Source of the DNA: Octopus sinensis
Lineage: Eukaryota
NCBI RefSeq assembly: GCF_006345805.1
Contig: NW_021836292.1
Span: 62,001 to 126,000 of the forward strand
DNA length: 64,000 nt
Direction of reading: 5' to 3'
Below are positions 45,308 through 61,350 of the stretch, piece by piece. A program made the position numbers and the translations under genes. Numbering within the stretch: position 1 is the stretch's first letter; each line of letters opens with the position of its first letter. The notes beneath the pieces are model-generated. The model was not told where the DNA came from, did not search any database, and saw nothing but the letters and a program-made list of their open reading frames with translations.

Positions 45308-45672
45308 TAAGTAATATTAAGTAATTAAGGGTTTAGCAACGATTTGCCTCACCACACACCGAATTTAGAAATAGCAGTCAAAGAGTTATGGCTATTCTTT
45401 CTACTTAAAAGGGAGATCCCAGTAAAACCACAGCACTTAAAAGGCAAACAACGCAGACAAAAGAGAAAGAAATGACGACCTCCCTTTTAAGTAGAAAGAA
45501 TAGCCATAACTCTTTGACTGCTATTTCTAAATTCGGTGTGTGATGAGGCAAATCGTTGCTAAACCCTTAATTACTTAGTATTACTTAAACCTTCCTTGAA
45601 TGGGGCTTTTACATGCCGAAATCTACTAGGTGAAATTAATGATTATTCCAAATTAATTAATTCCACCCTATA
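45308..45672 (+). mobile_element. Fold-back element E1: 108-bp inverted arms + terminal hairpin ending ccaccctata
   Basis: 45308-45415 is the reverse complement of 45480-45587 (2 mismatches seen); terminal ggtgaaattaatgatt/aattaattaattccacc hairpin. Confidence 0.85.
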
Positions 45673-45825
45673 TTATTATTATTATTATATATATATATAT
45701 ATATCACAATCAAGGAACGGCCATAATAGGCCATTCACCCACTAGAAATAACAGCCAAAAGCTTCAACCGCAAAATAACATCAATTCCGTAAACCAGGAG
45801 AAAATTAAAAAACATTTACCCTGTA

Positions 45826-45932
45826 ATTTCTTATACGATGCACCGTTTCATCTACTGTTTAATGGTAAACTAACCTGATTAAATTAAATCAAGCCAATCT
45901 TCCATAGGCCCTTAGAATCATCAGTAAGAAAT
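45826..45932 (-). ncRNA. Type I hammerhead ribozyme (inverted-arm copy)
   Basis: Reverse complement of 46193-46298. Confidence 0.75.
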
Positions 45933-46192
45933 AGCCAAGTCGGAACAGATATTTTCACGAGGCATTTCCGACCCTGCCTCGGCGCTGGTGGCAAAAAAAT
46001 TCTACAAAATTTTTTGCCACCCTATATTGATTAATTATGAATGTTCTGGTTAATTCCGTAATGGAATCGGCGGCTTATATTTATTTGCTGCCGATAAATT
46101 TGGCGCGAGTGCGATGATTTGAAAATTTTAGGTCAGATATTGCCGAGGCAGGGTCGGAAATGCCTCGTGAAAATATCTGTTCCGACTTGGCT

Positions 46193-46298
46193 ATTTCTTA
46201 CTGATGATTCTAAGGGCCTATGGAAGATTGGCTTGATTTAATTAATCAGGTTAGTTTACCATTAAACAGTAGATGAAACGGTGCATCGTATAAGAAAT
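46193..46298 (+). ncRNA. Type I hammerhead ribozyme with long stem II
   Basis: ATTTCTTA-CTGATGA-[tTCTA...TAGAt]-GAAA-CGGTGCATCG-TA-TAAGAAAT; 8-bp stem I, near-palindromic stem III, GUA site; first stem II pair is U-U. Confidence 0.8.
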
Positions 46299-46589
46299 TA
46301 CAGGGTAAATGTTTTTTAATTTTCTCCTGGTTTACGGAATTGATGTTATTTTGCGGTTGAAGCTTTTGGCTGTTATTTCTAGTGGGTGAATGGCCTATTA
46401 TGGCCGTTCCTTGATTGTGATGTTGAACTTAAAAATGGTCTATGACTATTTAATTTTTTCCCACTATGCCGCTGGTGGCAAAAAAATTCTACAAAATTTT
46501 TTGCCACCCTATATGATTAATTATATATATAATATATATATATATATATATAATATATATATATATATATATATATATATATATATATA

Positions 46590-46735
46590 GTTAATCCAAA
46601 CAAGAAATCACAAAGGAAAGAAGGAGGGTTTAACGTTTCGAGCGGAGCTCTTCGTCGGAAACATAGAAGGAAAGATCCAGAGAAGGGAAGACAGAGGGAA
46701 AAAAATCGCCAACGGTACACACGAGGTCACATTTT
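46590..46735 (-). mobile_element. Family H1 repeat with hammerhead motif at 46628-46662
   Basis: GTTT-CCGACGA-A-GAGC tcc GCTC-GAAA-CG-TT-AAAC on the minus strand. Confidence 0.75.
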
Positions 46736-47380
46736 GAAAGACCGGAGAATGTCTGTGTAAATGTAAGTGGTGGCGACACAAGTGGGAAAATGGAAGTAGA
46801 AGAAGAAAGGTAAAAAGTACGAGGAAAAAGTGGAAGAGTCACTGACAAATCTTTTTGATTTCCAATCACGATTTCAATGGCGTACTCCGGAAGAATGGTA
46901 ACAGTAATGCGTAGGTGTAAAAATCCAGGAATTGGTATCCAAGGCACTCAGAGGGCCATACACTGTCAACTGAAATAGCAGAATCACTGAAAATGTTTTG
47001 CTAGTGGATTTTAAACTATGTTAAATCATTTTCAATGTCCTTAATTTTGAAGTTCATGAATTCTTTATAATGATGTAATGTTTTCATTAATCAATTAAAG
47101 GAGTCGTTAGAAACGGTAGTAATGGATTGACACCTGTACCGCTACTGTTACTCATATACAGGTCGGCTTTACTTTTCATTTTTCCGGGGTCGATAAAATA
47201 AATACGAAATGAGCACTGAGTCGATGTAATTGACTTATCTCTTCCTTCAAAATTGCTAGTCTTGTGCCAAATTGAGAAAGAATTATTACATTTATGCATA
47301 AATTATAATCTTTTAATATCAGTGCTACCATGTAATTTATTATTCTCCAAAGTAATTGTCAATTTTATTTTATCTTTAAA

Positions 47381-58679: not shown

Positions 58680-59626
58680 TATATATACTACATGTGTGGA
58701 AATCTGTGGCTGTATTTGTGACGTTGTTATCTACGTCGTTTCGTCGATTTTAATGAAATTTGACACGTGAGTAAAACTAATGTTAGGAAAACTAGTGACA
58801 TACTTAGATTGTTGAAAAAATCGATAATAGTGCCCCTGGAAGGGATTCTTATATCTACTACATATAACTAATATATTATTTTTAAACATCCTAGGGAAAT
58901 AACCCTAATATATTATTTTTAAACATCCAAAGGAAATAACCCATTCGCTCCTGAAAGGGATCCTTATTTAAAGCCAAAGGAAATAACCCATTCATGTTTG
59001 TAAATTTTTTCGTATAAATCAAATTGATTTTGCTTATTTCTTAGTATTTGAACTATTTGAGTTATTTTCGCAATTTACCCAGTACAACGCTTAAACAAGT
59101 AAATAGTATTTTCCTAAACAATAGATCCACTTATTTCGGTTTGTGGCTTAGTCGCGAATATACCAACACTAGCGCCGTTGAAAGTAATATTCTCTGCGAA
59201 CGCACAAAAGCTTTTTTCAGAATCATTTACTTTGAATTATTATCTCATATCTGATTAGCCTGTTATTACATAACATGCTTCACGATTTTAGTATACATAC
59301 CTTATTAGTATTTTCTCTTAAGTTCTATATACTCTGGGAACGTATTAAAGCCTTTTTCGGGGCTACTTTATTTGAATACTTACTATCGGGTAATTAATTT
59401 CATGTTATTATATAACTGACTTCACAATTTCGATATTCATAACTTATTGGTAACTCGTAAAAACAAGATGCTGTGTAAGACAGTTCGGTCTTCTCACTGA
59501 ATGCATGAAAACCGTTTTAAGAGCTACATACTTTGCATTGTTGTCAGTGGGTTAGCGAAACAATTAAGAGAACGAAACCAAGGAATAAACCCCGCTTTCC
59601 CGGGAATTACCGGGTACATCAACTAG
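58680..59626 (+). mobile_element. Non-autonomous Helitron
   Basis: 3' cccggg aatta ccggg hairpin then CTAG|t; gattttaatgaaatttg internal motif; 5' end uncertain. Confidence 0.7.
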
Positions 59627-59724
59627 TATATATATATATATGCATGCATGTATGTATGTATGTATGTATGTATGTATGTATGTATGTATGTATGTATGTA
59701 TGTATGTATGTATGTATGTATGTA

Positions 59725-60032
59725 TGCTTAGCGGTATTTCGTCTGACTTTACGTTCTGGGTTCAAATTCCGCCGAGGTCGACTTTGCCTTTCATTCTTTC
59801 GGGGTCGGTAAATTAAGTACCAATTGCTTATTGAGGTCGATCGGCTTTAAATAAGGATCCCTTTCAGGAGCGAATGGGTTATTTCCTTTGGATGTTTAAA
59901 AATAATATATTAGGGTTATTTCCCTAGGATGTTTAAAAACAATATATTAGTTATACATAGTATATATAAGAATCCCAAAAAATTCTCAAAAGAATTCTCA
60001 AAAAATTCAGGCCTTGTGTCTAAAGTAGAAAA
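59725..60032 (+). mobile_element. SINE family A interrupted by an inverted 134-bp copy of nearby Helitron sequence
   Basis: SINE 59725-59842, insert 59843-59976, SINE tail resumes aaattcaggccttgtgtc. Confidence 0.8.
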
Positions 60033-60156
60033 GAATGTGTGTGTATGTGTGTGTTGTGTGTGTGTGTGTGTGTGTGTGTGTGTGTGTGTGTGTGTGTGTG
60101 TGTGTGTGTGTGTGTCTAAACGTTTGCATATATATATATATATATATATATATATA

Positions 60157-60911
60157 TTGGGTGCGATGGGTAAATTGTCGCCATTTTATAATTTTAGTTT
60201 TTTGCATGCTCATTGTTTGTTTTCATTTTATCGACTACACGGTATAGTAGGGTCAGTTGGGCACCGTCCGTGAGAAAACAGTACCATGATGCAATTCACT
60301 TTGGCAGTAATTTGAAAACGACATGCTGTACTGCTTGGCATTCGCGCCGGACATTTCAGAGTGTTTGGGTGTCAGTCTGAGAACATGTACCGAGAGTGAT
60401 AAAAATCAAACATCCAGTCAATGTCGTGGTGTTTGGGGTGGTCACCCTGTGTCAAGAGGGTGGCTTCTGAAAGATCCTACGTCTTGCAACAGGACTCTGC
60501 ATTATGCGACACAAGCAAGAGGATCCAGTCATGGCTTTCAGGCAATTTCTGCGACCACATCATCCCTAACATCTGGCCACCCTAGACTGCAACCCCCTTA
60601 GTTATTATGTGAGAGGTACAGTTTAGCGAGAGACCATCAAAGTTCCTTGTAACACCAAAGAACTGAAGGCAAAGATTATGGCTGCATTCACCAACTTAGA
60701 CAAGGAGACAGTCTAGAAGAGTCGCAGGAGACTCCAAAGTCGTCTGGAGGCTGTTGTTGAAACCAATGGCGATTTTATTGAATGAATTTATTCTTTAGTA
60801 CCTTAAGATATTTTCTATGTAATGTTGGAAGATATATCAGTTAAAATGAGATGTCAGTGTTATTTTCATTTTTGCGTAATTTAGACGACAATTTATTCAC
60901 CACAACTGGTG
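60157..60911 (+). mobile_element. Internally deleted Tc1/mariner-superfamily transposon
   Basis: Imperfect TIRs (taaattgtcg / cgacaattta) in TA context; IWPP..CNP and SRLEAVVETNGDFIE C-terminal transposase motifs. Confidence 0.8.
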
Positions 60912-61004
60912 TATATTATATATATATATATATATATATATATATATATATATCCTACATTAGTTATATATATATATATATATATATATATATATATATA
61001 TATA

Positions 61005-61350
61005 TAACTAATGTAGGATAAAACTTTTTCGAAAAAAAAGTTTATCAATGGCCAGCATATCAAAAAATACCTTTAAAGGTTAAATTTATAAATAACATAT
61101 AAAATAAGGGCAAAAGAAAAGTTCTAATGCCAAATATGCCGATAAACGACAAAATTGTCAATAACCATTATAATTTAAGCGTCTCGAAACAAGCCGACAG
61201 AAATTTCTAAGAAAATCCGTTATTACCGTATTGGTCCCAATTTCGGGATTAATCGTTAAGCGTTTCGAGACGCTAAAATTATAATGGTCATTGACAATTT
61301 TGTCTTTTTCGGCATATTTGGCATTAGAATTTTTCTTTTGCCCTTATTTT
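61005..61350 (-). mobile_element. Fold-back element E3: about 89-bp inverted arms, 3' half of a hammerhead and terminal hairpin
   Basis: 61102-61190 vs 61263-61350 inverted; minus-strand spacer has GAAA-TTGG ga CCAA-TA; terminal gataaactttt..aaaagttttatc-ctacattag. Confidence 0.75.

Follow-up and report, generated by a model that had tools for sequence, protein, structure and literature searches.

Three inverted-arm elements in (TA)n sequence

We analysed a 64,000-nucleotide (nt) stretch of an Octopus sinensis contig (the window, with positions counted from its first letter), in which three elements, E1, E2 and E3, carry an inverted arm and a terminal hairpin and lie in (TA)n sequence. Our data argue strongly that E1-E3 are 5'-truncated copies of non-coding tandem families bearing a hammerhead motif, that is, non-long-terminal-repeat (non-LTR) retrozymes, with two fixed end sites in (TA)n, and that they were likely inserted in trans by the reverse transcriptase (RT)/GIY-YIG protein of a Penelope-like element (PLE). 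In these families we observed monomers in tandem, hammerhead cores that are conserved, two ends (A and B), a rule that inverted copies join one arm ending at A to another ending at B, which an autonomous PLE also follows, and the closest similarity between arms at the same locus. The features of the three elements are as follows, with HA and HB denoting two hairpins, P1 a long-range stem, and pLTR a pseudo-long terminal repeat.

45308-45479 (-): E1 B-arm, covering monomer positions 316-484 in inverted orientation; the outer end, next to (TA)n, is end B, and 58 nt of the arm are absent from the A-arm
45477-45678 (+): E1 A-arm, covering monomer positions 374-575, with a 5' truncation downstream of the hammerhead and its end at A
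45533-45619 (+): E1 long-range stem P1 (predicted), formed by 45533-45541 and 45611-45619, the latter being the ATGCYG strand, around HB (45542-45565) and site B (about 45579)
45629-45672 (+): E1 hairpin HA (45629-45667) and CTATA
45703-45983 (-): E2 B-arm, covering monomer positions 105-385 in inverted orientation, with the outer end exactly at B
45983-46037 (+): E2 partial upstream monomer, positions 434-488 including hairpin HA, with a tandem, pLTR-like junction
46038-46524 (+): E2 complete monomer of about 487 nt, with its end at A
46193-46298 (+): E2 type I hammerhead motif, with CUGAUGA at 46201-46207, a long stem II, GAAA at 46275-46278 and predicted cleavage after 46290; without Rfam match
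46379-46467 (+): E2 predicted stem P1, 46379-46386 with 46460-46467, enclosing HB (46388-46409) and site B (46421)
46474-46513 (+): E2 hairpin HA (46474-46508) and CTATA
61006-61253 (-): E3 A-arm, monomer positions 219-467, with its end at A (61006)
61012-61046 (-): E3 hairpin HA (61046-61017) and CTACA
61052-61142 (-): E3 predicted stem P1, 61142-61133 with 61060-61052, enclosing HB (61131-61109) and site B (about 61094)
61224-61247 (-): E3 hammerhead 3' half, with GAAA, stem III, predicted cleavage site and the 3' strand of stem I
61262-61355 (+): E3 B-arm, running from monomer position 281 as far as end B, which abuts (TA)n

A sequence-only reading of the window had described each element as starting with an inverted copy of an internal segment and ending in a hairpin followed by CTAYA and (TA)n. 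The inverted arms are present in E1 (45308-45418 against 45477-45587, 97% identity) and E2 (45703-45983 against 46142-46421, 99.6% identity) and are borne out for E3 by a palindrome at 61084-61367, and the succession of hairpin, CTAYA and (TA)n lies at 45629-45672 (+), 46474-46513 (+) and 61046-61012 (-). In E1, however, the arm is not simply a copy of an internal segment, as the 58-nt "spacer" proved to be further upstream monomer sequence, inverted. The placement of the ends at CTAYA and (TA)n was sound, although the elements end about 5-12 nt beyond CTAYA, and E3 was correctly located except for its left-hand end, which lies near 61355 rather than at 61350. As that reading had noted, E3 keeps only the 3' half of a hammerhead (61247-61224, minus strand); E2 additionally has a complete hammerhead at 46193-46298 and, at 46037/46038, a tandem junction, and E1 is truncated below its hammerhead. 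Of the ATGCYG motifs ahead of the hairpin, that of E2 is a private mutation: 133 of 135 copies counted for the E2 family carry G as the second base (overlapping loci perhaps counted twice), and the ATGCYG form occurs in the window copy and one other copy only. Genome-wide, a pattern of ATGCYG, a gap of 32-56 nt, CCTAYATT and (TA)5 gave 1148 forward matches versus 4 in the reversed control; thus, the end is not a chance pattern. Next to E3, a 13-nt inverted copy of its A end lies across a (TA)n run (60953-60965, +; perfect 70-nt palindrome at 60951-61020), and could reflect an abortive second priming at A or a duplication made during repair.

Tandem families and the hammerhead motif

E1, E2 and E3 are 5'-truncated copies of three high-copy families with 2318, 1297 and 2919 first-look candidates, respectively, from each of which 40 copies were scored. 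Natural tandem copies gave monomer lengths of 578 (E1), 488 (E2) and 467 nt (E3); the arrays reach 13 monomers, and the top E2 copies show 96-99% identity to the one in the window. A looser pattern yielded a fourth family, E4 (943 candidates), and subfamilies E1b and E3b were also found; one looser-pattern match, C1:28033362, was rejected as a chance match. At one locus (L190), an identical 30-nt palindromic junction of the inversion occurs in two E2 insertions separated by 555 nt, which suggests a local duplication of the whole insertion. Supplementary file S1 of PMC8557442 and the octopus repeat library of PMC13282606 may include these families.

The monomers of 467-578 nt abut head to tail and leave no space for an RT and GIY-YIG open reading frame (ORF), and a tblastn search with three PLE proteins against the loci analysed listed no match over the monomers, no six-frame scan being made. 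Most 3' ends adjoin TA runs. An alternative is that the copies are stumps of the pLTR of an autonomous PLE, or local satellites produced by unequal crossover, instead of mobilised non-coding units. Most PLE insertions are indeed 5'-truncated, and local pLTR amplification has been discussed (bioRxiv 10.64898/2026.07.22.740005), but the copies run on, upstream of the 3' domain, into the preceding monomer and not into an ORF, and dispersed arrays stop precisely at A or B on both sides. In addition, the sole GIY-YIG sequence adjoining an E3 copy (L083), considered as a partner and rejected, belongs to a neighbouring element of a PLE family with a different end. We therefore consider stumps or satellites highly improbable, and for E2 this explanation is largely refuted.

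A type I hammerhead motif, comprising a core and stems I-III, is present in every monomer on the same strand as the hairpin, and its conservation was assessed by motif count; because of this motif, the families fit animal non-LTR retrozymes, self-cleavage and circles being predicted only. Contigs from four sequencing runs, none recorded as RNA and their type a guess, cover E2 and speak neither for nor against expression. The core is intact, save for its free position, in 29 of 29 E1, 129 of 132 E2 and 12 of 16 E3 matches, a count in which the expression required intact flanks and overlapping loci were perhaps counted twice; E4 contributed one copy to this count and four further motif matches in another scan. 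The motif has a short helix III that is mostly palindromic, E1, E2 and E4 have a long stem II, and the predicted cut lies 131-189 nt from end B. Metazoan hammerheads with such a helix III are thought to act as dimers (PMC4209133), and in minimum-free-energy folds of the monomers stems I and II form but the full active fold does not.

Two ends, the inverted arm and the 3' domain

By alignment, end A lies after the hairpin and end B lies about 100 (E1), 103 (E2) and 77 nt (E3) upstream, at monomer position 390 in E3. Of 92 inverted copies, 84 had A at the end of one arm and B at the end of its partner (30/33 for E1, 27/29 for E2 and 27/30 for E3), seven had one odd end, a single copy had A on both sides (AA) and none had B on both sides (BB); B was scored up to 25 nt short, and two complex copies, two duplicates and elements touching the locus edge were excluded. 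The AA copy (L220, 2305-2697) is the only one with the hairpin end on both sides. The E2 copies were picked without bias to either end (27 with A and B, no AA, no BB; P = 7e-9). Among uninverted E2 copies, five stop at A and six at B (n = 11), and, since they end at B as often as at A, B acts as a start site in its own right. The hairpin end singled out in the sequence-only reading is fixed but not obligatory, given the 6 of 11 uninverted copies at B. The commonest junctions lie 10-15 nt past the CT that follows each of HA and HB; for E4 the A end blends into the TA run, so that its position is indeterminate.

A hairpin with a CT motif after it resembles Helitron 3' ends, and MITEs (miniature inverted-repeat transposable elements) that target TA exist, so that DNA elements of the MITE or Helitron/Helentron type inserting at TA repeats have to be weighed. 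The E2 arms, however, range from 55 to 3270 nt with random 5' ends, the two ends of an insertion differ, and the hammerhead core is conserved on one strand. A MITE is contradicted by the widely varying arm length and the unlike ends, as is any such DNA element by the variable 5' truncation and the A and B rule, and we regard this explanation as extremely improbable. The proposal of one retro-mechanism at (TA)n targets is upheld.

The inverted arm had been tentatively attributed to fold-back or template switching, and for much of the sample fold-back is feasible: of the 84 copies with A and B ends, 57 fit fold-back primed at A and 9 fit only when primed at B. A single complementary DNA (cDNA) folding back to prime itself, with B as a cut or stop of the returning strand, would leave the families and their PLE partner as we describe them; some junctions are exact palindromes, and self-priming has been proposed earlier for rotifer Penelope (PMC3846280). 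Junction positions are weakly correlated between arms, a relation that was suggestive by eye but weak on permutation (P = 0.04, 0.14 and 0.08), and that we rejected as a finding of its own. Fold-back does not account for the remaining 18 of 84 copies, including E1 of the window, whose B-arm has 58 nt missing from its A-arm; in these copies one arm has sequence that the other cannot have templated. Nor do the uninverted E2 copies (6 at B versus 5 at A) favour it, and we consider fold-back unlikely as the general origin of the arm. The lengths of the E2 arms are uncorrelated (rho = -0.11), many inversion junctions overlap by a few bases, and E2 pieces of one arm differ by a median of 0.4%, those of opposite arms by 0.5% and those of different loci by 1.5%. 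We infer two primings on one RNA or source, with fold-back possible in some copies.

The region between and around the two ends has a common predicted layout in natural E1, E1b, E2, E3 and E4 copies, in which stem P1, with ATGCYG as its 3' strand, encloses HB, end B and a small hairpin, followed by HA and end A; both HA and HB are followed by CT. Compared with shuffled sequences, the last 150 nt of the window copies gave z values of -2.3 (E1), -5.4 (E2) and -3.8 (E3), and the folds of natural copies gave -2.8 to -4.6, with the same topology in four families, although one E3 copy lacks HA in its fold. Between families, HA pairs 2, 4, 5, 6, 7 and 8 change on both sides with pairing kept, and the HA arms pair at 6-8 of 8 positions within their own family versus 2-7 of 8 across families; the hairpin is therefore constant in structure while its sequence varies, as the sequence-only reading had it. 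The covariation expected from this view is present between families but near zero within them, where the HA signal is slight (P = 0.04 for E3), as is expected if most differences arose after insertion. Because four or five lineages provide few independent events, a shared domain of about 150 nt consisting of P1, HB and HA is supported, not proven. A motif of about 14 nt just 5' of P1, upstream of end B, is common to E1, E2 and E4 monomers and absent from E3, and is a candidate protein-binding site.

We propose that a multimeric or circular RNA would be bound through this folded domain of about 150 nt and that both (TA)n target strands would be nicked, so that cDNA would be primed from one 3' end at A and from the second at B, in both cases some 10-15 nt downstream from a hairpin and with 1-3 nt of AT pairing. 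The two cDNAs would extend over a variable distance and join through a few complementary bases, producing a head-to-head insertion that carries the A-B "tail" at just one of its sides, and a single completed cDNA would give an uninverted copy ending at A or B. More tentatively, and with doubt outweighing confidence, the domain conserved in four families may be a two-hairpin RNA "landing domain", in which P1 would present HB and HA, and each hairpin would bring a subunit of a dimeric Penelope-type RT to a separate start site on a single circular retrozyme RNA; alone, it might direct two-ended rolling-circle insertion into (TA)n and serve a further PLE lineage.

Several results weigh against our interpretation. 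The E1 and E3 copies were chosen through their A end, so that BB copies are invisible there and E2 is the sole fair test of the A and B rule, and 57 of the 84 copies with A and B ends are also compatible with fold-back starting at A. Only 12 of 128 rare E2 variants occur on both arms. The two E3b folds are weak (z = -1.3 and -1.6), the E3 consensus fold fails to recover HA, and two-sided changes within families were seen in 1 of 12 and 2 of 35 pairs. Rfam gave no gathering-level match in the window and, for four monomer loci, TA-repeat microRNA noise only. Furthermore, none of the four autonomous PLE families considered below shares the retrozyme tail, in a comparison by eye that was not exhaustive and that remote likeness could escape, and the tail of about 77-103 nt is longer than the 30-40 nt published for endonuclease-containing (EN+) PLEs.

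Relation to Penelope-like elements and known retrozymes

Four autonomous PLE families of this genome were examined: an old Neptune-type, a young Neptune-type of 781 amino acids (aa), a Hydra-like and a young 717-aa Penelope-type family, the clade labels being our reading of motifs. All four insert at TA runs and have two ends of their own, with tails of about 38, 45, 55 and 67 nt. The 717-aa family served as a control: its ends lie about 67 nt apart, and A and B ends were combined in 14 of 14 scored inverted pairs (16 were fetched; one with three ends and one with a single scorable end were left out). The link to PLEs made in the sequence-only reading is borne out by this rule common to the retrozyme families and the autonomous element, but no autonomous PLE ending in the same hairpin, which that reading had proposed to look for, was found among the four families inspected. 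The 781-aa family has a small hairpin and then CT about 15 nt before its outer end, a weak likeness only.

The 717-aa family (L305-L354; for example L352, 2796-4946, +) is very young, with about 100 of 150 listed copies identical over 140 aa, and is a good candidate for biochemistry. The 781-aa family (L285-L304) has intact frames that are about 99% identical and a 38-nt tail, and most of its copies stop at the inner site. The window contains Neptune-like PLE ORF fragments at 34984-35660 and 11512-11805 (+), 42-51% identical to the old Neptune protein. In the repeat annotation of Octopus vulgaris, 31 recently active Penelope-like families are reported, and the word "ribozyme" has no match in the text searched (PMC13282606).

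The architecture noted in the sequence-only reading is, taken alone, already known, and the notion of an undescribed mechanism has to be given up. The PLE tail at one insertion end, the adjacent inverted 5'-truncated copy and the (TA)n bias constitute the published insertion unit of EN+ PLEs (Craig et al. 2021, PMC8557442; Arkhipova et al. 2013, PMC3846280), which also shares with our families partial tandems and a hammerhead in the repeat; unlike EN+ PLEs, the families here are without an ORF, and their tail holds a strong hairpin. The families themselves are of a kind described as animal non-LTR retrozymes (Cervera and de la Pena 2020, PMC7229834; Li, Clavereau and Pollet 2026, bioRxiv 10.64898/2026.07.22.740005), with which they share non-coding AT-rich tandem monomers, a type I hammerhead per monomer with a short, mostly palindromic helix III, dispersed monomers to multimers and co-occurrence with PLEs. 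They differ in monomer length (467-578 nt versus about 300 in PMC7229834), in the long stem II of E1, E2 and E4 and in that no pLTR homologue was found here, whereas 24 of 57 Xenopus families have one (bioRxiv 10.64898/2026.07.22.740005). A word search of both texts found no "tail" (in the preprint) and no "inverted" in the main text, so that insertion ends appear not to be described in these portions.

In vitro, purified Poseidon PLE protein was found to nick AT-rich DNA and to extend it on both strands, and the two internal RNA sites where it starts delimit the tail (Frangieh et al. 2024, PMC11167929). Similarly, two ends or start sites define the tail in our families, here from sequence alone, and in both cases the ends are unrelated to the hammerhead cut. 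In contrast, Poseidon PAc starts in a stem-loop that is AC-rich and lies inside the ORF, whereas each end here lies 3' of its own hairpin in non-coding RNA, and the layout is kept across four sequence-divergent families. Non-autonomous Chlamys elements such as MRC1 (PMC8557442) are likewise non-autonomous PLE partners with pLTRs and head-to-tail multicopy insertions, but they share 3' sequence with autonomous families and are mostly without hammerheads; here the hammerhead is conserved and no such partner was found. A literature search, whose scope lay outside subscription papers, supplements, Repbase and Dfam, found no description of retrozyme insertion ends or of a two-hairpin PLE tail domain. 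What our analysis adds is the strict A and B rule in retrozymes that are non-coding, together with their long tail and the two-hairpin domain. These findings bear on how animal retrozymes enter genomes and how Penelope RT chooses two start sites; a PLE insertion signature on purely non-coding units gives structural support for PLE-driven mobilisation, and the RNA domain, compact, variable in nature and with both of its ends mapped, lends itself to mutation in the in vitro assay now available.

Other elements with similar features lie in the window. A Penelope-like pLTR remnant with a hammerhead-like motif occupies 46590-47100 (-), inside the TA run right after E2, and has relatives near 10300, 19240 and 32450. 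Inverted arms of 206 nt (99%) from another family, at 48564-48769 and 49027-49232, surround TA-rich sequence, with a diverged relative at 48138-48197, and arms of 134 nt (97%), 867 nt apart, lie outside a long TA run (58842-58975 and 59843-59976). More inverted-arm elements stand beside E3 in TA/TAA runs (61467-61613 and 62155-63551) and are likely other PLE stubs. The ends of a further element, at 51577-52830, resemble those of non-autonomous Helitrons.

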